A stretch of 64,000 nucleotides of DNA from Candidatus Hermodarchaeota archaeon (GTDB lineage Archaea; Asgardarchaeota; Lokiarchaeia; Sigyniarchaeales; SOKP01). The DNA is taken from the NCBI GenBank assembly GCA_048885525.1, contig JBHLLP010000011.1:29103-93102 (forward strand), in the 5' to 3' direction. Positions within the stretch are counted from its first letter, which is position 1. Each line of letters begins with the position of its first letter. The notes under the pieces are model-generated. The model was not told where the DNA came from and ran no database searches. It worked only from the letters and a program-made list of their open reading frames with translations. Below are positions 12,283-57,397 of the stretch, piece after piece. The translations under genes were made by a program, and so were the position numbers.

Positions 12283-13437
12283 TTAATTTCTAGGATAAAT
12301 AGCTGAATCTGGGGAAACTTCTTTTTGAAGCATTTTGAATGCTCTTTTAGAAGATGAGAAGGTCTTAGCGTTATATTTTTTAACTAATTCAACAAGTTCT
12401 TCATCAAAAACTCGTACAAACACTCGAATGAATGGATAGCGTAAATGAATTTTTGCTGTTAGATAGAGCAATTCATCAAATTCTGAATCTTTTTTCCAAC
12501 AAATGAATATCTGAGAAACATTTTCGAGATTTACGTGAGCACGTAAATCACTTAAAAAGCGAGCGAATTCATTGATAATATGTAATCTCTCATTTACGAT
12601 AAACTCGATTCCATCATTTTCGTCATCAAAAAGAAAAACCTCACGGTCTGGTTGTGTAGAGATATGATAGGCAATTCGATGAGTTAGGCTGTCACGACCA
12701 ATCACAATCGCATTCCCGGTTTTATCTTTTGTCCATTTATGAATACCGTCCATTGTCCATTTCGATGTGGAAAATGGAAATGCATTTAATGGAGACGCTC
12801 TGAGATACTCTTGAACATGGTCTTCAAACGCACGTACATAAATAGGAACTTTTGGATTCATTTTACGTATTTTTTCAGTACAAATTAACGCAACTCTAAC
12901 GTCTCCAACATTAATAAAGACTTCTTTTGCTCGCTTTAAATTGGCATGATTGAGATTAGTTATTTCAGTAGCATCGCCAACTACTATTGGTTGCCCCGCA
13001 TTAATTAAATCTTCGACTGCTTCTTCATTATCTTCTATAAGACAGAAAGGTTTTTTATTTTCGATACATAATTCAATTATTCTTTTAGAAAGATGATGAT
13101 ATCCAATAATTACTGTGTGATTTTTCTTATGACTAGCCAAAATTCTACTTGTTATAAGGGGATTATACTTTTCCAATAATTCTCCAATTATGAAACCAAA
13201 TACTATAACTTCCAATAAAATTGGCCATAGTAATGCATATAAATTCGCAAAATCACTTGCATCAGGGGGAAATCGCACAGTTAAAGAGTATAAGAAAATA
13301 ATTCCAATATTTTGGCCGGACTCAGTAATAAGAAAGAAAAGAAAACCACCAAACCAAAATAAAAATAGAAAAATAAAAGCTATCTTGTATTGCTTTAGCT
13401 TAAGCCTGAATTCAATGAAAAAGTTTACTAATTTCAT
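12283..13437 (-). CDS. 2-TM protein with tandem TrkA-N/RCK NAD-binding domains (K+ channel-like, no canonical filter)
   Basis: HTVIIGY, VVGDAT, second NAIVIGRD domain; no GYG. Confidence 0.75.
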   Translation of the reverse strand: MKLVNFFIEFRLKLKQYKIAFIFLFLFWFGGFLFFLITESGQNIGIIFLYSLTVRFPPDASDFANLYALLWPILLEVIVFGFIIGELLEKYNPLITSRILASHKKNHTVIIGYHHLSKRIIELCIENKKPFCLIEDNEEAVEDLINAGQPIVVGDATEITNLNHANLKRAKEVFINVGDVRVALICTEKIRKMNPKVPIYVRAFEDHVQEYLRASPLNAFPFSTSKWTMDGIHKWTKDKTGNAIVIGRDSLTHRIAYHISTQPDREVFLFDDENDGIEFIVNERLHIINEFARFLSDLRAHVNLENVSQIFICWKKDSEFDELLYLTAKIHLRYPFIRVFVRVFDEELVELVKKYNAKTFSSSKRAFKMLQKEVSPDSAIYPRN

Positions 13438-13643: not shown

Positions 13644-15494
13644 TTATTGAGAATATTGAGAGTTATCAGTTTCTACAGTAATTTCTCCATTAATTTCAAG
13701 TAATTTTGAACCACAATCCTCACAATAAACGGGTATCCCGCCCAATATTTTTCTAACGAGCTCTACTGGCAAGTTTTCTCGACATTCAGGACAATTTTGT
13801 GGACTAATCGAATTTTCAAATTCAGACATAATAGAAGGAGTCATATCCTCGTCCTCAGCAAATATATCCACTTTCAAAACTGAAAATTGCTCATCTTTGT
13901 TTCCATTTAGAGTTAATAGTAATCCAACAGAATGTTTGCTAAAAGTACCTTCAGCATAACCTTTGATAAATCCATGGAATTTTCCTTCTAATTCTTCTTT
14001 TTCAGAATCAATGATTGCAAAATTTTTCCTTTTTAAAAGATTAGATAATTTTTGGTACAATTGAATGGCATTATATGGAATTGTAAATTCTTGTCCAACT
14101 TTTTTGAATGTAAGAAGATCTTTAGTGAGATTTTCAAAATCTTCATTTGATACTATCTTTGGTCTTAATAGTCCACATATCATTCGGATCTCATGTGGTT
14201 CTACATTGATGGTATCGATCTGATCTTTTTCATTAATAAAATTAACTACAGCATGAACAGTTCCTTTGATACAATCTTTTTTTGGCTTAAAAACGAAAGT
14301 GGGGCTTACAAATCCTCCACCTTTTGAAATTTTGTGAAATTTTGCACTGTCTGGAGAAAATTGTGGATGTCCATCTACACGTGATAAGATTAAACTTTCC
14401 TCTGGATATGAAAGTATATTTATATTGATATTAGTAATGTTAAAGTTTCTGTTATTAATAACTTTGATCTTGAAGAGATATTCACCTCCCTCAATCTGTC
14501 CTCCCCTAAGCACTCGTATATCTGGAGATTTCACATCCGGTTCAGCTGGAATTGGGGTTGAACTAGAAACACTTTCGCCTTGGGTTGTGTTTGAAGGTTC
14601 AATAATTTGTTTAGTTTTGAGAGTTTGCGATTCTAAAGCAAATTTTTTACTTGGCATTTCGATAAGATCGCTCTTATCACCTTTAACTAATTTGAAAAGA
14701 GAAATTTTATTTTTTGAAGCTGCTACCAAAAGTACGTTTTCTTTTTGTTCTGAAGAGATTGTATAAGTATCAAGACACTGAATTTTTACCCCTAATTTAT
14801 GATTGCCAATAATCTCTTCATTTAAATTAATAGCATTTAAAAATCCGTTTTTATCACCTACAATTAAGATGGGTTGGTTATATATATTACAAAATGTTAG
14901 GCATATCGGTTGATACTGTAAGTCAAAAACCAATTCTGAATCTATATCATTAATAACATTAAGAATTTTCCCTGATTTAAGTAAAACAAAGATTTTTTTT
15001 GTGATATCATTAGATAAATTACCGATAGTGCAATCCATGACTGGTTCAGGGGCTTTAAATTCTAAAAATTTATTTCCTTTATTATCTAGTCCAAATATTC
15101 GTTGATTTTCTAAACCAACTATAATTTCATCTCTACTATCGTCTCTTAAATCGCCAGTTTCCATACAAATTACTGGGGAATTTAGATTTGTTGACCAGAT
15201 TGGATTTCCTTTTTTATCCATTACATAGATATTTCCATCCAACGCTCCTGATATTAATTCAATATTATCTTTTTTACTTACAGATGCTATTTCGAAGCAG
15301 GTTATATTCGAAGCGAATTCAGTGTTAAAAACTTCATTACCTTTTAGATCAAAAGCTTTCATTTCTGCATTGAATGAACATCCAATTATTTCAGGTTCTG
15401 AGTCCCCTAATAGATTTGCGATTATACAAGAATAGACAGATTTTTGAAATTGACGTACCCAAAGTAATTGTAGTTTAATGTATTGCAATGTCAT
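13644..15494 (-). CDS. Beta-propeller + Ig-like appendage (GAE-like) + platform-like + Zn-ribbon protein (BBS2/7/9- or coat-like architecture)
   Basis: About 40-aa repeats with FG-GAP-like motifs (DLRDDSRDEIIVG), low-complexity linker, beta-rich FKIKVINN...FVFKP region, LRPKIVSNEDFENL, CPEC..CEDC. Confidence 0.65.
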   Translation of the reverse strand: MTLQYIKLQLLWVRQFQKSVYSCIIANLLGDSEPEIIGCSFNAEMKAFDLKGNEVFNTEFASNITCFEIASVSKKDNIELISGALDGNIYVMDKKGNPIWSTNLNSPVICMETGDLRDDSRDEIIVGLENQRIFGLDNKGNKFLEFKAPEPVMDCTIGNLSNDITKKIFVLLKSGKILNVINDIDSELVFDLQYQPICLTFCNIYNQPILIVGDKNGFLNAINLNEEIIGNHKLGVKIQCLDTYTISSEQKENVLLVAASKNKISLFKLVKGDKSDLIEMPSKKFALESQTLKTKQIIEPSNTTQGESVSSSTPIPAEPDVKSPDIRVLRGGQIEGGEYLFKIKVINNRNFNITNININILSYPEESLILSRVDGHPQFSPDSAKFHKISKGGGFVSPTFVFKPKKDCIKGTVHAVVNFINEKDQIDTINVEPHEIRMICGLLRPKIVSNEDFENLTKDLLTFKKVGQEFTIPYNAIQLYQKLSNLLKRKNFAIIDSEKEELEGKFHGFIKGYAEGTFSKHSVGLLLTLNGNKDEQFSVLKVDIFAEDEDMTPSIMSEFENSISPQNCPECRENLPVELVRKILGGIPVYCEDCGSKLLEINGEITVETDNSQYSQ

Positions 15495-15650: not shown

Positions 15651-16115
15651 TCATTCTGGCTTTTCTTCTACATCTTCTTTGACTTTCTTTACTAATTTTT
15701 TAAAAGCTTGTGTTAAACTACCTATTTCAGGATCTTGTTCTTCTAATTCTTTATCGAAATCTGTATCAATCTCTTGAAAAGATAGAGTTTTGAGATCGTG
15801 GGTGCATAGCTTTAAAGCAATATTTGTTAATTTATGAATTGGATTTACTATTGAATCGGAGAGTTTCAAACCAATAAAAAGACTTATTACGATAATTTGC
15901 CATAGTGATATAAAGATTATTGCTAATTCTATCTCAAGAGTTTCAGTAATTTTAGCTTGATCCTCAGGTGTAGCACCAACAATACTGTTACCAATAACCT
16001 CATTAAATATTGCGGCAATAATAGCAATACTCCCCAACGCTATTACACAAACTATAACGAAACTCAAAAGAATTTCTTGTCTAACCCCAAATTTTCTTTT
16101 TTTTTGTTGAACCAT
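15651..16115 (-). CDS. 2-TM + HAMP protein with no output domain
   Basis: Two TM helices, IVNPIHKLTNIA...EIGSLTQAFKKL. Confidence 0.8.
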   Translation of the reverse strand: MVQQKKRKFGVRQEILLSFVIVCVIALGSIAIIAAIFNEVIGNSIVGATPEDQAKITETLEIELAIIFISLWQIIVISLFIGLKLSDSIVNPIHKLTNIALKLCTHDLKTLSFQEIDTDFDKELEEQDPEIGSLTQAFKKLVKKVKEDVEEKPE

Positions 16116-16117
16116 CT

Positions 16118-17842
16118 TTATCCCTCCTCTGGTACAAAACCTTCTATTTCTGATGACACCATTATTTCCTTAACCTTTGTAAAAGCATCAGCGATTCTCT
16201 TTGAAACGTTTTTAGCAGAATAAATTGTGATATATTTACCAAGTGGAGTTGCATTAACAATTTCTGTCATTTTTCGATGAACGCGTTTTAGTTCGGGTCC
16301 AACTCCAATTAAAATAATATTGAGGGGAGGCTCAACTTTTTTTATATAATTTGCAACTTTGCGAGAATTATACTTTTTACTTTGATTATCTTCTCCATCT
16401 GTTAGAGTTACAATCCATTTCTGTCGTTCTTGAGTTTTTTGTTCTGAAATTGGTGGTGCTCCCAATAATATATCTATTGCATTAGCTATTGCATCATATA
16501 AACTAGTTTGATAAGGTAAAAAGTCCATTTTTTTAAATATATTAGTAATTTGCGATACATTACCTTTTTTCTCTGTTAATTTGAGATGGTTATGTACAAT
16601 AGAATCAAAACCAATAATTGCAACTCTATCTCCAATGTTTATTGTTTCATTGAAGACTCCCAAAGCTCCTGTTCGAGCTGCCCCCATTTTTCCCCACATG
16701 CCCATGCTCCCAGATTGATCAATTACAAAAACCACATCTTTTTTACGAACCAGTACATCATCTACTTTTGAAAGTTCAAGCTCTGCTTTATGATGAAGAG
16801 TTGTATTATCCTGACTTTCATATAATTGAACCATAACTTCAAGGACATTTTTCATTAAAGGATAATTCCCAAGATTTTCTGCTAATTTCAAAGCATTTTT
16901 AAAATGATCCTCTGCAATCCCTGGATTGTTTTTTAATATATTTAGCCTCCCTAGTTGAAATTCATCTTCTGATAATCCTACATTATTTTCCCATTTACTA
17001 TCAAGTCTAAATGCCTCATCAAGTTGTTCTTGAGCGAGATTCAATTCATTTTTTAACATGTGAAGTACTCCTATATTTCTTTTTCTTGAAGCAATTCCTA
17101 ACTTATCTCCCAACTCATTGTCAAGTTTAAGAGCTTTGTTAAAATCGTCCATTGCTTCTTGCCATCGTTCTTCTGAAAGAAAAAGAAGAGCACGATTGTT
17201 ATATCTGGCACTTAATGCTCCAATATCCTCCTGTTCTTCACCAATTTTAATCGCCTTATTATAACTTTTCCTTGCTTTATCAATATCACCCCAATTCCTG
17301 TAAATATTTCCAAGATTATTTAAACACATGCTCTCTCCATGAAGATTTTTTGTTGTTTGAAATAATTCTAAAGCAGCATTATAGTTTCTGAAAGCAAGCA
17401 TCAAATTACCTTGATAATAACTTTTATTCCCTAAACGCATTGTAACCAATAAACTCTGAAAAGATTGGGCAAGTACACCAATTTCATTTCTTCTCATTCT
17501 TCCACTCATAGGAATTTCTTGGGTTAAATCACCTTCAGATATTTGTTCTATTGAATGTGTTAGCTCTATAATTGGTTTGGTTATTCTTCTGGAGATACCA
17601 TTTACAGCAAAAAATATGATAATACCGGTTATAGCTGATCCAATAATGATGGTTATGATTAAAGGGCTTTTTAAAGCTTCAAGTGAACTGTACCCTAATC
17701 CTATAAAATAGTCAATATTTGTTAAGAGTTGATACGCTAAGAAAATTGTTAAAAGTATGAAGGGGATTGAAATACAGGTAATCATAACAATGAAGAGCCG
17801 TTGTCGTAATGTTCTTCTTTTTCTTATTTTTTTAACTTCCAT
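16118..17842 (-). CDS. 2-TM + HAMP + TPR + vWA protein
   Basis: ITKPIIELT...NEIGVLAQSF HAMP; repeated LNNLGNIY-type TPRs; vWA MIDAS DQSGS...T...LTDG. Confidence 0.88.
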   Translation of the reverse strand: MEVKKIRKRRTLRQRLFIVMITCISIPFILLTIFLAYQLLTNIDYFIGLGYSSLEALKSPLIITIIIGSAITGIIIFFAVNGISRRITKPIIELTHSIEQISEGDLTQEIPMSGRMRRNEIGVLAQSFQSLLVTMRLGNKSYYQGNLMLAFRNYNAALELFQTTKNLHGESMCLNNLGNIYRNWGDIDKARKSYNKAIKIGEEQEDIGALSARYNNRALLFLSEERWQEAMDDFNKALKLDNELGDKLGIASRKRNIGVLHMLKNELNLAQEQLDEAFRLDSKWENNVGLSEDEFQLGRLNILKNNPGIAEDHFKNALKLAENLGNYPLMKNVLEVMVQLYESQDNTTLHHKAELELSKVDDVLVRKKDVVFVIDQSGSMGMWGKMGAARTGALGVFNETINIGDRVAIIGFDSIVHNHLKLTEKKGNVSQITNIFKKMDFLPYQTSLYDAIANAIDILLGAPPISEQKTQERQKWIVTLTDGEDNQSKKYNSRKVANYIKKVEPPLNIILIGVGPELKRVHRKMTEIVNATPLGKYITIYSAKNVSKRIADAFTKVKEIMVSSEIEGFVPEEG

Positions 17843-17875: not shown

Positions 17876-18631
17876 TTAAACTCCCTTGTCTATTCCTTCA
17901 TATATTAGAAAGATCGATGTAAAAATAGAAGCTTTAACAATAGCTAAACCAATCAATGGCATATCAGAAACACCTGCATCAATGATTCCAAAAAGAGAAA
18001 CAAACATTATACCTAATCCCATTGAATATCTCCTCCATTTAGCGGTTTTATCCTCGAGTTTTGACCCAGATTGAAGAATAGCCGGTCCTAAGATTACCAT
18101 CATAATAACCAGCACCACCCCCAATAATGCCAATGCCAAACCTTTAATCCCTGTAGATGGTAAACCTCCACCTATTTCCTCGGATGGTTTCCAGGAAGTA
18201 TATGTTGAAGGATTGGAATAAATTAAAATAGCGAAAATTATACTCACTATTCCTACTATGCCTGTAATTGGGATTTTATAACGACCTTCTTTAAACAAAT
18301 CTGAAGCTATATATGCCCAAATGGTTGCACCTAAAGCAGGACCCCAAGCATATCCAAGAACGCCGATATTTGGATCACCATCCGGATACCCTAATGGAGG
18401 AAAACCGAAAATCATTAATAAAAAACTTGCAGAGACTCCAAACCAAGCGTGAAAAACGGAGATTAAACCAATTCCACTTAATATTAATCTTTTTTTAACT
18501 TTTATATCAGTTGCTTTTCTAGCATGCTTAAAAATGAGGATAAAAGCTAATATATAACCAGCGGCAATAATTTCAAGACCTGTGAGTCCATTTATTATAT
18601 CAATATTTGGAAGAACCATATATGTTAACAC
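17876..18631 (-). CDS. 7-TM membrane protein (putative sensor; same family as the N-terminus of 48071-49120)
   Basis: About 7 hydrophobic segments, N-terminal INGL motif; likely start is the ATG at 18619 after an AAGGGGTG RBS. Confidence 0.75.
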   Translation of the reverse strand: MLTYMVLPNIDIINGLTGLEIIAAGYILAFILIFKHARKATDIKVKKRLILSGIGLISVFHAWFGVSASFLLMIFGFPPLGYPDGDPNIGVLGYAWGPALGATIWAYIASDLFKEGRYKIPITGIVGIVSIIFAILIYSNPSTYTSWKPSEEIGGGLPSTGIKGLALALLGVVLVIMMVILGPAILQSGSKLEDKTAKWRRYSMGLGIMFVSLFGIIDAGVSDMPLIGLAIVKASIFTSIFLIYEGIDKGV

Positions 18632-39849: not shown

Positions 39850-42800
39850 GTGAAGAAAACAAACACAAAATTAAACCGATTCATATTTTTATGTACAATA
39901 TCTATATTCATTCTTATCGTAAATAGTATTTTTGTGAGTCAGTCCAACTTTGGTTTAGTAGAGCAAAGTAATAAGGCAAATAATGATGACTCGACTCAAC
40001 AATCATTAGATCAGTTGAAGAATCAATACTCTGAGGATGTGGGAGGATATTCTGTTTCAAACACAGCTAATTTTAGAACTATAGAAAATGCGTCTAGTAC
40101 AATATATAAAAGAGATTATTTAGCTAATGAAAGTCGTTATTTCAATATTACTACTCCCCATACCTGGAACACTTCTTCCGTGAAATTTACGATTGATCCT
40201 TATTCTAAAAAGCAAATCATTCAAGATCCCTATTTTGATTCAGAATATGATAATGGACCACAATATTGGCAGAGAGAAGAAGTAGAAAGTGGAATGGGAA
40301 CTTTTTATCAATATGATTTAGAGAATTACCCTTATGGAAGAACGAATATATATAATTATAAATGGAGGCTATATCCAGCATTTTACGAAGGCGATTATGC
40401 CTTCTGGAAGAATCAATTTGATATTCCACCTCTTGAAGATAAAAATATTAAAAAAGGGAAAATAATCCAAGAAGAAAATGAAATATTTCGAGATTTCAAC
40501 AATTTTGAAACAGATCCAGGCTTTTTTAAAGATTTCGATTTACCTTATGGGGGAACTTACGACCCTGTGTGGGATATTGTCGATCTCTTTTATTACGAAT
40601 CAAAATTAAGCCTTAGTGTATGGATTGATCCATATCCATCTATCGTTGGAGGGAATCCTTCAGCAGCTTGGTGGTACTATATTTATATACCCTATGAAGC
40701 TGATTATGCCCAGTTGAAAATTACGTGGAATATTGATGAAGAATTTTCCACGTTTGAGGCAGAAGATGAATACGAAGTAATAGCGCGAATAAATAATAAA
40801 TATGTTGATGGAAGATATCCAATTTCAGAGAGTGGAGAAGAAGTTCCATTTAACGGATCGAGCAGAGCACTTATGGTATATGATAATCCAAAAGTACCAG
40901 GTCATATTAACCATAACACAATTTCAAGAACATATAATATCACAGATTTAATTGACGGGTTGGTTGGTATAAACAAATTTGATTTCGGTGCATGGGCAAA
41001 GAATCCCAGTTCTCAGGGAGATCATGATTTAATCCTAGCTAATTTCGAATCTATCGAGATTATGTTTAATACAACCACTAAATATGAGGTTGCTTCTCTA
41101 AGTTATAGGTACAAATTAATTGATAATGATGCACATGGATTTAATCCTTTTTTATTAAATAATAAAGCATCTCTTTTCTTAAATCTGAGAGACATGGATA
41201 CTAATGCTGAAGAATTAATTAGGGTACTTCCATTTTCAATGACGATAACAAGTTCAAAGAGTTTTAGTGATACACCCTGGATTTACATGAATTTCAGTAT
41301 TTCTGATAAATATCAAGAAATATTAAGAGCTAATAAATTAGAGTTAAAAATTGGGATATATTTTGAAGGTAATTGGTATGATGAAATTGATTATGATCAT
41401 TATCTCGATAATGTATTCTTCAGGATTAATTATAATCAATCTGTAACAAATCCCCAATTGAGAATACGAATAGACAACTCATCCACTTGGGACAAAGTAA
41501 ATCAGACAGTTCATAGAATTGATACTTCTAATTGGGGGGGTGGAGAATTTCACAGTTTTCAATTTACTACATTTGATGCAGCTTATCAAGATAGATTATA
41601 TCTTAATCTAAAATCTGATCAACATCTTTATCATTTCAATAACCTTGCTAATGGTGCCAAAGCAAGTTATTCTATACGAGGAGCAAATTCTTCTAATGGA
41701 ATTTGGAATATTACCTATGATAATACAATTCCTTATTTCAACCTTTTAACGGAGAATTATACTTCATATTTTAATATCTCATCATATTCAATATCATATA
41801 TAGATATGCCAGCATTCGATAATAAAGGTTCAAACAGTGCTAATTGGGAAATTTTCAGTGCGAGATCCCCTGATTATACAGATTTCACAGCAAACCTCTT
41901 TAGATTTAACTATTCGGTATATATTAATGAACAGAGCGCATTAATATCAAAAGCTTATGGAATCGGAAATTGGACATTGCTAGGTTTTCAACCTAACTAT
42001 ATAACCAATTGTCTGCTCAATGCATCCAACGAATATTTAGGATTACCACAATATTACTCTGATGACATAGTACAATATAACATTAGTATAATAGAGTCAG
42101 TAGAAGGAAATTACTCTATTGCATTATACAATGATACAGGTTATCTTATGAGTGAATTCCCTAGACACTATTCGTCTACTGGGGCGAATATTCTTGGAAC
42201 AATAGATTTAGCAGAAAAATATACCGTTGGTCTGTACTATTTATTCATAAAATGGAATGATACCGCTTCTTTTCCAGGGAGTACATTAAGGTTTGGCTCC
42301 AAAATTGAACCTTTCGTAATATTTAATAATACAAATGCTCAATTTACTAAACTCACTGCTAATGTTTCATCTGGAGTTATCGCGGAATTCGCCTTAAATT
42401 ATACAACTTATAAAGATTGGGGTATTCCTAATGCTACAATATCAGTCTTTGAAAATTCAACCGGCGTTGTTAATTATTGGGGAGTTGCATGGTCAGGATC
42501 CTATCAAGTTGGTAAAATCACCTATTTAGGTAATGGAAACTACTCTATTCCTCTTATTACAGATTTCGCACCAAATGGAACCTACCCTCTATTTTTTTAT
42601 TGTTATAAGTTTCCTAATAAACCACAAATTTTAACTACAACATTAAAAATACTTGCTGAAAATATAATTGAATTTAATATAACATCAGGTGCCTTTTTAG
42701 ACAATTCACAGTGGATTATTAACCCTAATAATATACCCTATGTAAATGATACAATAAATAGTGTTATTAGAGTTAACCTTACAAGTTCGGGGTTACCAAT

Positions 42801-45636
42801 AGAAGCAGGCTCAGTATTAAGTCATATAGGAGAATCAGAGAACTTTTTTAAAGCAAAAGAGATTGGTGGAGGATTATATGATATTACTTTAGATACAACC
42901 GGTTTTAATGCTACAAAAAAGATTGGTAATAATTATATCGAAAATCAGACTTTAGAAATTAGATGTAGTGCTTCTGGGTATAACCTCATAAAGAAATATG
43001 TGACTATTTTTATAGATAAAATTCCAACGGAAACCACAATTCAAGACATTGACAACATATATGCTGGAGGAAGTATTACAGTAATCTCTACAATGATGAA
43101 TCTGATTGATTCTGACAATCCTAAACCAAATAATAACGGTAATTTGCAATATTATATTTATAAAGGAACTACTGAGAAGCTAAACGGCTCTTTAGAGTTT
43201 TTAATCAATGGAGTGTATCAAAAGAGTATTTCATTATCTGGTCTTTTAGTAGGGGAATATACCATATATGTTAATGGAACCGCTTTTAATTGTGAAAGAA
43301 GTCAAAGTAATATGATTAATTTTACTATATTGCCCCAGGAAACCACAAAAATAACTATAACTGTTCCAGAAACATTAAGGATTTCAAAAGAGTTCCAAAT
43401 TAGGACGGAATTAAAATATGCTATAAATGGTACTCCAATTCAAGACCAAATAGTCAAACTTAATATCTCAATCGGTCAAACTGAGAATTTTATAATATCT
43501 ACTATAACTGATTCCAATGGAATAAGTACTTATGATTACATAATCTCTTCACAATATAAAGACCAGAACATTACAATTGAAGCAATTTATGACGGTCAAG
43601 AGAAAATAAGTCCTTCGCAAACCAGTGTTACTAAGACAATCTACGGCAAACTACCTCTTCGCATGGAAATTTATATTTTTCCTAGTGTTGTAAGAGTAGG
43701 TTACTCCGCAAGCTATGGTTTAAGGATAAATATAAGTGATAGTGGAGAAACCCTCCAAAACAAAGTAATTCTTTTTTCAGCTTATTATAATGAAGATTTA
43801 ACAAGCTCTATTACTACGGCCCTACTCTATACAGATATAAACGGTCAATGTGAATATAGAATTACAGAAATTGAGGATCATAACGATAATATTACTGTAT
43901 ATTTTGAATACCTTGGCTCATCCACTCTATCATACAATATAACTTCGAGATTAGATATAATTGAACCAAAATGGAGTTCTAATTTTACCGTTCAACCTCT
44001 ACCAAGTATTATACGTTATGGCCAGACTATCGATTTTTATATGCTGTTTTCCTGTGAAAACACATCTATATCCTTACAGAATCTACCTGTTCTTTTTATA
44101 TTTAAATATGGAGGGACAATAGAGAGCTATACGGAATTTATAACAGTAAATAATACTTTGATTTATTCATTTCAAGTTGCTGATACTTTCAGTGGTAATT
44201 TAAACTGCTCAATTATTTTCGAAGGGACTAACAGAATATCAGGAGATTCACTAAATTATAGTCTAGTCATTAATCCAAAATCAATAGTCCAGCTTAGGTT
44301 CATAGAGACTATACAAACTCAGTATATGTACGGATCCTACTCTTTTCGTGTATCTGTTGAAAATGAATTAGGAGAACCTTTAGATGGCTTATTAATATTG
44401 TTTCAAATTTTGAATAATAATGGAGATGAAATCTCTAATTATACTGCCATTTGTGAAGATGGACTTGCTGTAGGAACCTTAAATCTACCATTAGGTAATA
44501 ACTATAGGATTCAAGTTCAATTTTTTGCTGAAAGTTTTTATGAAGGTGCGGTTTTAACTTCAGAAAGAATACGAGTAGTAAATCAGTTTATTATCTTTTT
44601 AGACTATTTACCATATATACTGTTAGCTATAGGTATTGCTGTTGCTACTATATTTACAATCTATCGAGCTGTCATCGTTCCTAGAAGACGAAGGAGAATA
44701 GAATCATTAAAAATACTTTATCAAAAACTAGCTGATGTAGAAAACGTTCAGTATATACTCGTTTTGACTGCAGATGGAGGAGTACCTTGTTTTAGCAAAA
44801 GTCTAGCTGATGTACCTATTGATGAATCTCTTGTATCTGGATTTTTGAGCGCAATTTCAACTTTTGGAACCGAAATTGGAAGTAAAATTCAGGAAGGAGA
44901 GGGAGGCTTGGAAGAATTATCATATCGACAATTTAAAATAATTATAAATGAAGGACAATATATAAAAGTCGCTTTACTACTTTTAAAACGCCCTAGTGAA
45001 TCCTTAAAAATAAAACTCAGAAATTTTAAAACTTTGTTTGAAGAAGTCTACGAGAAAGAGTTGAAACATTTTACAGGAGAAGTTTTTGATGATATTGCAG
45101 TTACCAAACTCATTGAAGAGGTATTTGAAGCTGATCTCTTATACCCCCATCAAGTCATAGAAACAAAAGTAGATGACTATATGAAATCTTCAACATCAAA
45201 CAATATTGATAAGAAAATTATTATTATAGCACGTGGAGAAGAGTTTGAATCCAATTTCTACTTGAGAGACTTAATTAATCACCTTAAAACAAAAGGGATT
45301 GAAGAAATTAAATCATTTGACAGTATACAGAAAATGAAACATGACAAAATTGTGTTCGCGATAAACCCACGGACTAATTACCTCATTGAAGAGTTTAAAG
45401 GTTATATAAAACATATGACTCATAATGATAGAAATGTACTGTTTGCAATTTTCGATGGAAATAATGATATTATGAGTATAAGGAAATACATGAAAAAAGC
45501 TGGTATGTATGTGCCAACTGATGTTCACCAAATTATTGAGAAATTAAGAAGATTACATTTGATAGATGAGGTAAATCGGATTACCGATAATGGTAGTGCG
45601 ACTGCCACTCTTTTGAAGTTAATTCCAGATATATAA
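39850..45636 (+). CDS. Large single-pass surface protein with beta-rich ectodomain and cytoplasmic longin/roadblock-like domain
   Basis: N-terminal hydrophobic signal, many NxS/T sequons, TM at about aa 1588-1609 then PRRRRR, then YILV...GVPCFSK...DESLVSGFLSAISTFGTEI. Confidence 0.8.
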   Translation: MKKTNTKLNRFIFLCTISIFILIVNSIFVSQSNFGLVEQSNKANNDDSTQQSLDQLKNQYSEDVGGYSVSNTANFRTIENASSTIYKRDYLANESRYFNITTPHTWNTSSVKFTIDPYSKKQIIQDPYFDSEYDNGPQYWQREEVESGMGTFYQYDLENYPYGRTNIYNYKWRLYPAFYEGDYAFWKNQFDIPPLEDKNIKKGKIIQEENEIFRDFNNFETDPGFFKDFDLPYGGTYDPVWDIVDLFYYESKLSLSVWIDPYPSIVGGNPSAAWWYYIYIPYEADYAQLKITWNIDEEFSTFEAEDEYEVIARINNKYVDGRYPISESGEEVPFNGSSRALMVYDNPKVPGHINHNTISRTYNITDLIDGLVGINKFDFGAWAKNPSSQGDHDLILANFESIEIMFNTTTKYEVASLSYRYKLIDNDAHGFNPFLLNNKASLFLNLRDMDTNAEELIRVLPFSMTITSSKSFSDTPWIYMNFSISDKYQEILRANKLELKIGIYFEGNWYDEIDYDHYLDNVFFRINYNQSVTNPQLRIRIDNSSTWDKVNQTVHRIDTSNWGGGEFHSFQFTTFDAAYQDRLYLNLKSDQHLYHFNNLANGAKASYSIRGANSSNGIWNITYDNTIPYFNLLTENYTSYFNISSYSISYIDMPAFDNKGSNSANWEIFSARSPDYTDFTANLFRFNYSVYINEQSALISKAYGIGNWTLLGFQPNYITNCLLNASNEYLGLPQYYSDDIVQYNISIIESVEGNYSIALYNDTGYLMSEFPRHYSSTGANILGTIDLAEKYTVGLYYLFIKWNDTASFPGSTLRFGSKIEPFVIFNNTNAQFTKLTANVSSGVIAEFALNYTTYKDWGIPNATISVFENSTGVVNYWGVAWSGSYQVGKITYLGNGNYSIPLITDFAPNGTYPLFFYCYKFPNKPQILTTTLKILAENIIEFNITSGAFLDNSQWIINPNNIPYVNDTINSVIRVNLTSSGLPIEAGSVLSHIGESENFFKAKEIGGGLYDITLDTTGFNATKKIGNNYIENQTLEIRCSASGYNLIKKYVTIFIDKIPTETTIQDIDNIYAGGSITVISTMMNLIDSDNPKPNNNGNLQYYIYKGTTEKLNGSLEFLINGVYQKSISLSGLLVGEYTIYVNGTAFNCERSQSNMINFTILPQETTKITITVPETLRISKEFQIRTELKYAINGTPIQDQIVKLNISIGQTENFIISTITDSNGISTYDYIISSQYKDQNITIEAIYDGQEKISPSQTSVTKTIYGKLPLRMEIYIFPSVVRVGYSASYGLRINISDSGETLQNKVILFSAYYNEDLTSSITTALLYTDINGQCEYRITEIEDHNDNITVYFEYLGSSTLSYNITSRLDIIEPKWSSNFTVQPLPSIIRYGQTIDFYMLFSCENTSISLQNLPVLFIFKYGGTIESYTEFITVNNTLIYSFQVADTFSGNLNCSIIFEGTNRISGDSLNYSLVINPKSIVQLRFIETIQTQYMYGSYSFRVSVENELGEPLDGLLILFQILNNNGDEISNYTAICEDGLAVGTLNLPLGNNYRIQVQFFAESFYEGAVLTSERIRVVNQFIIFLDYLPYILLAIGIAVATIFTIYRAVIVPRRRRRIESLKILYQKLADVENVQYILVLTADGGVPCFSKSLADVPIDESLVSGFLSAISTFGTEIGSKIQEGEGGLEELSYRQFKIIINEGQYIKVALLLLKRPSESLKIKLRNFKTLFEEVYEKELKHFTGEVFDDIAVTKLIEEVFEADLLYPHQVIETKVDDYMKSSTSNNIDKKIIIIARGEEFESNFYLRDLINHLKTKGIEEIKSFDSIQKMKHDKIVFAINPRTNYLIEEFKGYIKHMTHNDRNVLFAIFDGNNDIMSIRKYMKKAGMYVPTDVHQIIEKLRRLHLIDEVNRITDNGSATATLLKLIPDI

Positions 45637-54004: not shown

Positions 54005-57000
54005 TTAAGCTTCGGGTAATAAAATTACAAAAGAATCTCCTTCAACCCATATTTTTCCATTGTAATTATTTAGGATTCGTTCAACTAAAAGAAATCCTAA
54101 GATTATTTCTTTAATCTTGCTATCTTTTTCTCTTTCTTTTTGGAATATCATTTCTTTTTCAATATTTAAAATCTCTTTTTGATGATCGATAACTTTTACT
54201 TTAATATAATTTATATCATCCATTTGACTTGTAAAAATAATAATTTTAATCTTGATTTTTGGATTTCTATTGTATCGAATTGAACTGATAAGGATATTCA
54301 CAAAAACATCAATTAGAAACTTATCAGCTTTCACATATAGATCCTCAGGTGGATGTTCAACATCAATTTTAATTTTTTTATTAGGATAACTATTTGTGAT
54401 AAATTCTTTAACGTCCTCAATAACATCATTTAAATTTACTGCTTTAATTAAAATATTTGCTTCATTAATCATAGTTAATTTTTGGATTATATATAGCAGA
54501 AGTTGACCATTTATGCATTGATCTTTAATATTATCTAGTAATTTTCTATTAGATTTTGATATAATTCGAGTGTTTTGCTTATTGTATTCATCTAATAATG
54601 ATTGAACGTTCTTTATTATAGAATTTATATCATTTACGAATAATTCTTTATAAAAATATTCTCGATCTAATTCTTGGTGCATAGTCTGTTCACTTTTGCG
54701 TACATTTTCTTCAGTAAACATACGCAACATGACATGTTTAAAAATCTCTGAAATAATGGTAAGTAATTCTAAATTTTCTTCTACCCAATAATCCTGGTCG
54801 GTTAGGTTATCAAAACAGACCATTCCTTCTAATATCCCATTAATTATTATTGAAAACGTTAAAAAATTGTTCACTCTTTGATTTTTAAGAAAATACGCTA
54901 AATTAACTGCCTCTCTAGGAAGGTTATCTACATCTTTAACATAATAATAATCAGAATCTTTTAATTTCTCACTTAACCATGGAAAATTATCAATATCTAT
55001 ACTTTCAGGTAAACTAATATGAGGTAGAATCAATTTGCGAGACCAAACATAATTTCTTTTTGTATCATCAGAATTATTATCAAAAATGTAAAGATACGCT
55101 CGTGTTGCGTTAACAAATTCACCAATATCTCTAAGTGATTCAATTATAGCTTGGTTAAATTCTTGTATGCCTACAAATCTGGATACAGTTCCTGCAATAA
55201 TAGTTTTTAATCTAGATATTTTCTTTAATTCCTGTTCTATTTTTTTCTGCTCTGTTATGTTCTCACAAATAATTTGATAAAATGTTTTTTCACCAATATC
55301 AACTAAAGAAGATTGCAAATTAACCCAAATTAGGTTACCATTTTTATGATATAGTTGAATTTCTAATGGAGAAAAAACTTTACCTCTTTCTTGTCTTTTT
55401 ACTCTGTCTAGAACACCTATTAGATAATCTTTATGAATCAATGAAAGATCTACAAATTTTCTTCCCATTAGTTCCTCTCTTGTATATCCTAATGTTTTCT
55501 CTAAATTAGGATTAAAGTCGACTAGAGCTCCATTAGGATCAATTAAAAGAATAGAAAAGGGTGAATCTTCGAAAAGATGACGATATTTTATTTCAGAATG
55601 CTTTAATTTAATTTCTGCTTCTACTCGCTTACTAATATCCCGAATAATGTATTGAACTAAAATTTGACCCCCCATCTGTACTTCATTGAAACTAATTTCA
55701 ACTGGAACTAGCCTACCAGAGCTATCAATTACCTCTAATCTTAAGGGAAATGGATAATTAAGTTGATCAAATACTTCTTCATTAAAATCGATATCAATTA
55801 TATCACTTATTATTTGACTTGAATGCAATCCAATAAAATCCTCAAATGGTCGTTGAAATAAAACCTCAGCTTCTTTGTTAACATCCATTATTATTCCAGA
55901 TTTTTTATCAATGATTAAAATGGCATCTCGAGCAGCTTTGAATAAAGCCTCGTAATGTAATTCAGCCATTTTAAGTGCTTCAATTGATGGTCGATACAGG
56001 TCAATTTGATGATTTATTGTATTATGAATAATTTTAAGAATATTTACGACTTGATCTTTATTCAAGTAATTCTTCTTTATCTCATCAAAATATTGAAGTA
56101 TGAAGGAACTAAATTGGTTAATAATATTTTTAGGAATCCTTTCATTATAATAAATTATTAAAGATAATGGTAATATACCTCCTCTAATGCTCTCATTTGG
56201 AACATAGTCAAAATAAATCGCTGCATTTGAATTTAAGTGAGGAAACGGAAGAATTACTGAGGTTGGTTTAAACATCTCTCCTCCAAAAACGAATTGTGAT
56301 ATCGAAAAACTTTTTACAGAAATCAATTCTGGGTCCTCAAAAGCATCTTTTGGATAAACTGCTTCTACTTTAAGACCTAGATTTTCATCCCAACGGCTAA
56401 AAATTATACTAACTTCACTTCTTGGAGTATAGTGTTCAACTCTCTCTGTAATTTTTAATGAGAGCCAATTAAATGCTTCATCAATATTTACGTTTTTATT
56501 TCCACTTGTTAGAAATGATTTCATTGGCCTTTTTCCGAGTTTCTTAACACCCATAGCTTCTTCTAATTCATTTATATCTGGCCGTTTTAAGTCAATCTTA
56601 TTATAAAGAATAAGAAGTGGTAATTCACTTAACTCTGGTTTCCCCGCAATTTCGTGCAGCAATTCACGGGCAAATGAGAATTTTATTTTATCGGTAACAT
56701 CTAAAACAAAAATTAATCCATCTTGGTTTTTAAGATAAGGTTTCCAGAGTTCTTTAACTTTGTACTTTCCAGGAATATCATAAGTTAATAATGATACGTT
56801 ATTAACTAAAATTCTAGATATGTCGACATTTATAGTTGGAAATATCGTTTTCGATACTGATTTCCTTCTGGTTTTGATTATAGTCGATTTCCCCGCCTGT
56901 GAAAGCCCAAAAATCAATATTTTTGCCTCTTTTTGTTCATATATAACGTCTTGCTCTGGAAAAGATGTATGAAATGTATTAAGTAATGTTCTTATCTCCT

Positions 57001-57397
57001 CTAGTTTAGTGGAATCTCCTTTATGGATTCTTGAATCCACATAAAAAGCTTTGAAAACATTTTCGATTTTTTTAAATTCTTCAACAAATCCCTCTAAAAA
57101 TTTTTCAGCAAGAGTAGAATTAATTTGAGATTTACCATCAATAACTAATGAAATTAGAAGACGCTCCTTTCTCGTGTTTGAATACTCACTTGGAATATCA
57201 AAGATTAGATTAGCTGTTTTAAAAGTTCCAAATGCATGTTTAAAAAATCCATTTTCGTAGAGATATATCAATAAAGGCACTTGTTTGATATCGTCTCTTT
57301 CAATCGCTTCAGGCATTTTTAAAAAAATATATGGAGGAAAATATGGATTCCGATGACTTAAAATTAAAATTCTCAAACTACAACAACCTCTTTTCAC
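54005..57397 (-). CDS. Longin-like / Arf-family small GTPase / uDENN-longin-like / PAS / PAS / GAF / degenerate histidine kinase fusion
   Basis: GLSQAGKS, PT, DIPG, NKID; two PAS domains (IRDISKR, CENITEQK); GAF; HisKA/HATPase remnants (NDINS, ADKFLIDVFVNIL, LGFLLVERI..YNGKIWVE). Confidence 0.85.
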   Translation of the reverse strand: MKRGCCSLRILILSHRNPYFPPYIFLKMPEAIERDDIKQVPLLIYLYENGFFKHAFGTFKTANLIFDIPSEYSNTRKERLLISLVIDGKSQINSTLAEKFLEGFVEEFKKIENVFKAFYVDSRIHKGDSTKLEEIRTLLNTFHTSFPEQDVIYEQKEAKILIFGLSQAGKSTIIKTRRKSVSKTIFPTINVDISRILVNNVSLLTYDIPGKYKVKELWKPYLKNQDGLIFVLDVTDKIKFSFARELLHEIAGKPELSELPLLILYNKIDLKRPDINELEEAMGVKKLGKRPMKSFLTSGNKNVNIDEAFNWLSLKITERVEHYTPRSEVSIIFSRWDENLGLKVEAVYPKDAFEDPELISVKSFSISQFVFGGEMFKPTSVILPFPHLNSNAAIYFDYVPNESIRGGILPLSLIIYYNERIPKNIINQFSSFILQYFDEIKKNYLNKDQVVNILKIIHNTINHQIDLYRPSIEALKMAELHYEALFKAARDAILIIDKKSGIIMDVNKEAEVLFQRPFEDFIGLHSSQIISDIIDIDFNEEVFDQLNYPFPLRLEVIDSSGRLVPVEISFNEVQMGGQILVQYIIRDISKRVEAEIKLKHSEIKYRHLFEDSPFSILLIDPNGALVDFNPNLEKTLGYTREELMGRKFVDLSLIHKDYLIGVLDRVKRQERGKVFSPLEIQLYHKNGNLIWVNLQSSLVDIGEKTFYQIICENITEQKKIEQELKKISRLKTIIAGTVSRFVGIQEFNQAIIESLRDIGEFVNATRAYLYIFDNNSDDTKRNYVWSRKLILPHISLPESIDIDNFPWLSEKLKDSDYYYVKDVDNLPREAVNLAYFLKNQRVNNFLTFSIIINGILEGMVCFDNLTDQDYWVEENLELLTIISEIFKHVMLRMFTEENVRKSEQTMHQELDREYFYKELFVNDINSIIKNVQSLLDEYNKQNTRIISKSNRKLLDNIKDQCINGQLLLYIIQKLTMINEANILIKAVNLNDVIEDVKEFITNSYPNKKIKIDVEHPPEDLYVKADKFLIDVFVNILISSIRYNRNPKIKIKIIIFTSQMDDINYIKVKVIDHQKEILNIEKEMIFQKEREKDSKIKEIILGFLLVERILNNYNGKIWVEGDSFVILLPEA

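Follow-up and report, generated by a model that had tools for sequence, protein, structure and literature searches.

A propeller, hinge and ear protein in a putative sensor gene cassette of Lokiarchaeia-type Asgard archaea: BBSome-like domain order, most likely by shuffling

When an archaeal protein has its domains in the order of BBSome core subunits, is it a forerunner of a eukaryotic coat or a local assembly of archaeal parts? The question is raised by P0001, encoded in a stretch of 64,000 nucleotides from a Candidatus Hermodarchaeota genome (hereafter the window). On the minus strand, positions 13644-15494 form one unbroken ORF of 616 aa with an ATG start, in a region of ~30% G+C. In a database search, Asgard metagenomes and MAGs yielded ~80 full-length homologues, which are 40-85% identical to P0001. 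All named homologues come from Asgard MAGs, labelled Lokiarchaeota/Promethearchaeota, Thor- or Hermodarchaeota, and the 16 loci in species-representative genomes are without exception labelled Promethearchaeota (Asgard phylum, 16/16). An alignment of 25 orthologue sequences (A1) has 126 invariant columns, among them all four cysteines of a C-terminal finger. Given these columns and the ~80 full-length homologues, P0001 is a real gene and not a chance reading frame. The window contains two further long ORFs, at 39850-45636 (plus strand, 1928 aa) and 54005-57397 (minus strand, 1130 aa). The gene and its parts are as follows.

13644 to 15494, minus strand: P0001, whole gene, 616 aa and stop codon; propeller, hinge, appendage and Zn ribbon
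14661 to 15494, minus strand: propeller, aa 1-278; six predicted blades, FG-GAP/PQQ class
14526 to 14660, minus strand: hinge, aa 279-323; disordered and S/T/P/E-rich, from pLDDT <50 and composition
14172 to 14525, minus strand: Ig-like beta-sandwich, aa 324-441; appendage sandwich or GAE-like subdomain, from model m2a2783f952ad
13806 to 14171, minus strand: alpha/beta platform, aa 442-563; TBP/helix-grip-like, aligned together with the sandwich to ears
13695 to 13805, minus strand: predicted C4 Zn ribbon (CPEC...CEDC), aa 564-600, from cysteine conservation

A first-pass annotation had described a repeat-built N-terminal region of ~270 aa with FG-GAP-like motifs, an S/T/P/E-rich linker, a beta-sandwich of ~110 aa followed by an alpha/beta domain, and a CPEC/CEDC finger. 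Each of these was recovered. The AF2 model of the full-length protein (mean pLDDT 72.8) has 24 strands within aa 6-271, forming six four-stranded blades of ~44 aa each, then an unstructured stretch (279-323), a beta-sandwich (326-439), an alpha/beta domain (446-561) and a small Cys-knuckle finger. The motifs lie at aa 26-40 (ANLLGDSEPEIIGCS), 114-127 (GDLRDDSRDEIIVG) and 443-456 (LRPKIVSNEDFENL), with CPEC at 568-571 and CEDC at 591-594. Serine, threonine, proline and glutamate account for 51% of hinge residues, and the length and sequence of the hinge vary between orthologues in A1. The finger cysteines (C568, C571, C591 and C594) are invariant in the 25 orthologues as well as in 92 module homologues (alignment A2, distant relatives at 25-73% identity), and the finger has a weak match to Pfam Zn_ribbon_LysW; judged by these residues it is a putative C4 Zn ribbon with two conserved CxxC knuckles. 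A model of aa 320-603 built from A2 (m2a2783f952ad) reached a pLDDT of 89.6 and a pTM of 0.75. No signal peptide, TM helix or hydrophobic segment was found in P0001, and since it has no hydrophobic segment we read it as cytoplasmic. An extracellular location was considered and rejected, signal peptide and TM helix both being absent.

Comparison of the whole model with the PDB by Foldseek placed BBSome subunits (BBS9, BBS2, BBS7 and BBS1) in all nine best positions, including BBS9 6vbu_9 (E 3.5e-17, 644 columns) and BBS9 6xt9_I, with IFT-A, SF3b130, ITFG2/KICSTOR and COPI ranking below. The BBSome-like architecture predicted by the first-pass annotation is thus borne out. That annotation had allowed for a C-terminal half of unrelated fold with no platform; instead, sandwich and platform matched the ears of beta-COP and adaptins. 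Structural matches of the sandwich (324-441) were adaptin and COPI appendages, GAE ears and TRAP-beta, and the sandwich and platform together aligned to the beta-COP, alpha-adaptin and beta2-adaptin appendages over 210-226 residues (VIA-align 2). The best Foldseek matches of the appendage were beta-COP 5NZR_B and beta2-adaptin. A shape search of the ESM-Atlas with the C-terminal module ranked Thorarchaeota clusters at the top, including one in which HEAT_2 is combined with the module, followed by eukaryotic beta-COP, and a language-model feature search gave eukaryotic alpha-adaptin ear clusters at 0.76-0.77, which we treat as a lead only. No Pfam model, including the eukaryotic ear and BBS C-terminal models, matched aa 320-565 at E<=1. 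Among PDB sequences, the A2 profile detected no adaptin or COP chain at E<=10 and the P0001 sequence gave chance-level matches only. A match of the A2 profile to the beta-arrestin C-domain in PDB sequences (E 0.3-0.5) was rejected as not significant.

Do these matches make P0001 a true archaeal homologue or forerunner of BBS2, BBS7 and BBS9, which with its TPR neighbour would form a primitive BBSome-like coat? We consider this very unlikely. The ~44-aa blades of the propeller with D-x-x-D/E-x-x-E-I-I-V-G loops, together with its matches to propeller models, are FG-GAP/PQQ-like. P0001 passes the Pfam cut-offs of BBS7 (30.9 bits, cut-off 27) and PHTB1_N (29.2 bits, cut-off 28.6), and also scores on lambda-carrageenase (29.0 bits, cut-off 26.8) and ACSF4/PQQ-like (37.1 bits, cut-off 133); BBS2_Mid (23.8 bits) and Itfg2 (21.4 bits) remain below their cut-offs of 27. 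However, distant matches of P0001 that are multi-propeller proteins of generic FG-GAP/VCBS type reach 42-133 bits on BBS7, BBS2_Mid, Itfg2 and PHTB1_N, on the BBS models exceeding P0001 itself by a factor of two to four, so the BBS matches of P0001 hold at class level only. Two proteins of the same genome also outscore P0001 on the BBS propeller model: PF23743 gives two other ORFs of that genome 71 and 44.5 bits, and had matches in 0 of 14 control genomes. In rigid-body alignment the P0001 propeller ties with WD40 and NHL propellers. We assign it, by its repeats and profile matches, to the FG-GAP class to which the BBS and ITFG2 propellers also belong, and do not place it beside BBS. The remainder of the protein likewise argues against BBSome ancestry. 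In structure the appendage resembles the ears of beta-COP and AP2 more than BBS9, and the Pfam C-terminal models for BBS and adaptin proteins all fail to match it. Six predicted blades come with neither a coiled coil nor a C-terminal helical domain.

Two other propeller genes of the window's genome deserve mention. The 556-aa protein G000:C58 (L019:4403-6073, plus strand) is the genome's strongest match to the BBS7 propeller model of Pfam (71 bits) and also matches FG-GAP_3, BBS2_Mid and Itfg2. Its C-terminus comprises ~220 unassigned aa with no appendage, and the gene adjoins one for a 729-aa DUF11 protein. It was considered as a second BBS-like architecture and rejected, the appendage being absent (hhalign probability 0.2%). 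It could correspond to the 'BBS7/ITFG2' Asgard ESP that has been catalogued; a cluster of that name appears, without detail, in a preprint of October 2026 (10.64898/2026.10.28.762692). G000:C8 (L018:3963-5087, minus strand, 374 aa) is a propeller only, matching CGLA, BBS7 (44.5 bits), FG-GAP_3 and BBS2_Mid.

The C-terminal module also occurs in many other proteins. An exhaustive phmmer search returned 1118 proteins at E<=1e-3. Most share only aa 310-598 of P0001, following N-terminal parts that are unrelated and 30 to 2600 residues long. Among 70 of these N-termini tallied with Pfam were SBBP propellers, beta-helix/NosD, TSP3, PKD, LVIVD, TPR, LRR and a solute-binding domain, and TPR, HEAT, beta-helix and PCI/Vps28-C domains are found as partners of the module in other proteins. 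Shuffling onto dozens of other N-termini is a further point against BBSome ancestry. The genome that the window comes from (3.58 Mb, 99% complete) has three genes that match the module profile: P0001, a 790-aa Vps28-C protein and a 329-aa stand-alone protein. The 790-aa protein (G000:C70, L020:1484-3856, minus strand) combines DDRGK / E3_UFM1_ligase / PCI winged-helix repeats with an appendage region and a VPS28 C-domain, and its residues 455-685 align with the module of A2 (hhalign 97.3%, E 2.3e-11, 229 columns). The 329-aa protein (G000:C6, L021:4126-5115, plus strand) consists of appendage and Zn ribbon (hhalign 93%, E 2.7e-7, 260 columns) and matches Promethearchaeota ESM-Atlas clusters of 329-330 aa. 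Makarova et al. 2024 (mBio, PMC10936438) described archaeal 'adaptin (TRAP-beta) appendage' regions made of IG and TBP parts, for example arCOG15284. These occur in Asgard multidomain proteins with Vps28-C, PCI and longin domains, some carry Zn ribbons, and their best matches were beta-COP and beta2-adaptin. G000:C70 is an ESCRT-I-like multidomain protein of this type, and the kind of module found in P0001 was therefore already known.

The same module that P0001 shares with ESCRT-I-like Vps28-C proteins forms the cytoplasmic tails of many Asgard membrane proteins. Among 92 module-bearing proteins, 48 have a TM helix at most 80 aa upstream of the module, which suggests that receptor-like or polytopic membrane proteins often carry it as their cytoplasmic tail; an N-terminal hydrophobic segment is present in 47. 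In Asgard surface receptors, the ear and Zn ribbon seem to be a tail in widespread use on the cytoplasmic side. Many members of this set show a signal-like N-terminus and a large beta-helix, PKD, SBBP or TSP3 ectodomain. The platform and Zn ribbon might instead form a KA1 / helix-grip-like unit that binds lipids or ligands beside the membrane, in place of a peptide-binding ear, and tether P0001 and its many TM-linked relatives to the inner membrane face. We find this improbable. Other arrangements were also seen. In P0082 (819 aa) the module accompanies TPR, and in an ESM-Atlas cluster (407 aa) HEAT_2, reproducing the solenoid-then-ear order of adaptins and beta/gamma-COP. P0086 (762 aa) has two appendage-Zn-ribbon modules in tandem and heads a module-gene cluster of another Asgard archaeon (GCA_964610875.1, L022:6001-13459), followed by a 1111-aa LVIVD/TSP3 protein and a 378-aa HEAT_2 protein. 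P0025 (783 aa), 62% identical to the C-terminal module of P0001, carries Pfam TIR_2 (PF13676) and a PQQ-like propeller and is a possible conflict-system variant.

P0001 is the last of four co-directional genes, downstream of P0005, P0004 and P0003. The TPR protein that had been noted two genes away is P0004, on the upstream side. The neighbours are as follows.

17876 to 18631, minus strand: P0005, 251 aa; opens the cassette, with about six TM helices and no assignment to a known family
16118 to 17842, minus strand: P0004, 574 aa; two TM helices, HAMP, TPR and VWA with a DxSxS MIDAS motif
15651 to 16115, minus strand: P0003, 154 aa; conserved neighbour on the upstream side, with two TM helices, a HAMP-like helix and an acidic tail
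12283 to 13437, minus strand: P0002, 384 aa; two TM helices and TrkA_N (RCK) domains

Of 17 loci compared, which span 40-85% identity, 14 preserve the order of the cassette either whole or as far as their contig reaches. P0002 lies near P0001 in 8 of the 17, in either orientation and at variable positions, and its membership of the cassette is uncertain. The clade at 40% identity has dCache sensor inserts in both HAMP proteins (P0003 and P0004). When 61 genomes of the window's own family were sampled, the five with full-length P0001 were also the only ones with a P0004 orthologue, which in each lay adjacent to P0001. The TPR partner is a membrane HAMP-VWA protein, which also counts against a primitive BBSome. 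Its acidic-aromatic C-terminal tail, SSEIEGFxPEEG (last 12 codons of 16118-17842), is invariant in 13 of 13 orthologues and is a candidate short linear docking motif. In another Lokiarchaeial lineage the position of P0001, in an operon with dCache-HAMP-TPR-VWA and dCache-HAMP genes, is held by P0081, a propeller-only protein of 48% identity with a helical tail in place of the appendage. This propeller-only orthologue in an equivalent operon also speaks against BBSome ancestry; it suggests that what stays with the sensor pair is the propeller, and that the appendage-Zn-ribbon is an add-on that can be exchanged. We saw no ARL6-like GTPase, BBS5-like or BBS4/8-like partner genes around P0001, and no ESCRT genes (Vps4, ESCRT-III, Vps28-C/steadiness box) within ~10 kb of it.

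Taken together, P0001 probably acts as the soluble adaptor for a sensor in the membrane, one with protein binding as its output. The two HAMP proteins, P0003 and P0004, would form the sensor, with protein binding through TPR and MIDAS-VWA as its sole output; the P0001 propeller would dock on this TPR-VWA output; and the appendage-Zn-ribbon, tethered by the hinge, would act as a second interaction hub linking the sensor to other proteins. The folds, the order of the domains, the homology of the module to archaeal appendages, the gene order and the strict co-occurrence are what the analysis establishes; the binding partners, and a role in signalling or sorting, we infer. A predicted complex of propeller, C-terminal module and the cytoplasmic part of P0004 scored 0.33, against 0.32 for a control with the C-terminal module replaced, which counts neither for nor against binding.

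The distribution of the P0001 family is narrow. Full-length P0001 orthologues turned up in 5 of the 61 genomes sampled from the window's own family, patchily even inside the genus (3/13), and none was detected in other families of a 201-genome phylum sample at the strict threshold of E<=1e-30. An ancestor of the BBSome would be expected to be broadly present in Asgard archaea, which is not what this sample shows. Module-only paralogues are expanded in one other Asgard family (37 of 43 genomes, up to 6 copies, often in tandem arrays of 350-430-aa module proteins such as G138:C2:25731-30701) and were not found in the remaining families of the sample at E<=1e-30. Several P0001 copies have decayed: one has an internal deletion of the appendage (L015:7001-8071), one is a C-terminal fragment only (L017:7001-7374), one contains in-frame stop codons (G163:C241:4286-6126) and one is a remnant (G190:C37:155418-155702). 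Such patchiness and decay would suit an accessory conflict (defence) or niche-sensing island, with P0001 as an effector-less scaffold whose coat-like fold is incidental; VWA, TPR and dCache/HAMP inputs are common in conflict and signalling systems, and the relative P0025 has a TIR_2 domain. We nevertheless hold such an island to be unlikely. PADLOC and NCBIfam gave the cassette no system-level assignment, the sole PADLOC match being a generic TPR model; no nuclease, protease, NADase or ATPase is encoded in it; and the genes outside it are unrelated, housekeeping ones.

We favour, with moderate confidence, the reading of P0001 as a soluble, non-enzymatic scaffold of some Lokiarchaeia-type Asgard archaea and the last gene of a four-gene accessory cassette, its propeller docking on the HAMP sensor output, its ear module serving as a second hub and its domain order coming from shuffling. 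P0001 is most likely a lineage-restricted fusion that uses a known archaeal ear module and not a BBSome ancestor, and its BBSome-like order most likely arose by shuffling inside its operon and was not inherited by eukaryotes. We regard the order as convergent because the ear is promiscuous and nearer to COPI/AP2 ears than to BBS9, because the six-bladed propeller is generic FG-GAP, because P0001 has neither the coiled coil nor the helical domain of BBS proteins, and because a sister operon (P0081) does without the ear while the P0001 family is narrow and patchy. Of the resemblance first noted, domain order and fold stand and specific kinship with the BBSome finds no support. A caution follows for fold searches, in which BBSome-like top matches can come from domain shuffling and not necessarily from descent.

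In the literature searched, neither the architecture nor the operon of P0001 was found, nor any substantive link between the BBSome and Asgard proteins; the terms BBS, adaptin, appendage and coat are all absent from the main text of Köstlbacher et al. 2026 (PMC12962969). Archaeal appendage-domain proteins are already known, and the propeller fusion and the sensor cassette are what we did not find described. As in P0001, the appendage-region proteins of PMC10936438 have an Ig-like sandwich directly before a TBP/helix-grip platform, some with a Zn ribbon, and homology at profile level connects the P0001 module with the Vps28-C protein of its own genome. P0001 differs from them by an N-terminal FG-GAP propeller and a long hinge, and by residing in a HAMP-TPR-VWA sensor cassette and not in an ESCRT (Vps4/ESCRT-III) neighbourhood. 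With the eukaryotic ears (beta-COP, gamma-COP, AP2 alpha and beta2) it has in common the bipartite fold of sandwich and platform, but it has no match to the Pfam models Alpha_adaptinC2, Alpha_adaptin_C, B2-adapt-app_C, Coatamer_beta_C, Coatomer_b_Cpla or COP-gamma_platf; its hinge joins the ear to an N-terminal propeller and not to an alpha-solenoid trunk, and the C-terminal Zn ribbon is extra. ITFG2 (KICSTOR; Foldseek 9v80_B was among the matches) and generic FG-GAP/VCBS/PQQ-like propellers are of the same propeller class, yet they lack the appendage module that P0001 has.

The archaeal ear module, found also behind TPR and HEAT solenoids in adaptin-like order and on the cytoplasmic side of receptor-like membrane proteins, is for that reason a concrete candidate, open to experiment, for a hub of protein sorting or clustering that predates eukaryotes. 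BBS2, BBS7 and BBS9 have a seven-bladed propeller, a coiled coil after the propeller and an alpha-helical C-terminal domain (6VBU/6XT9). P0001 has six predicted blades, a disordered hinge in place of the coiled coil and a predicted Zn ribbon in place of the helical domain, and its C-terminal half lacks BBS2_C, PHTB1_C and BBS7 GAE/platform Pfam matches at E<=1. The order of propeller, GAE-like sandwich and platform is nevertheless the same in P0001 and in these subunits (6VBU, 6XT9, 6VOA), and Asgard archaea would thus most likely have built the propeller-hinge-ear layout of BBSome core subunits from parts of their own.
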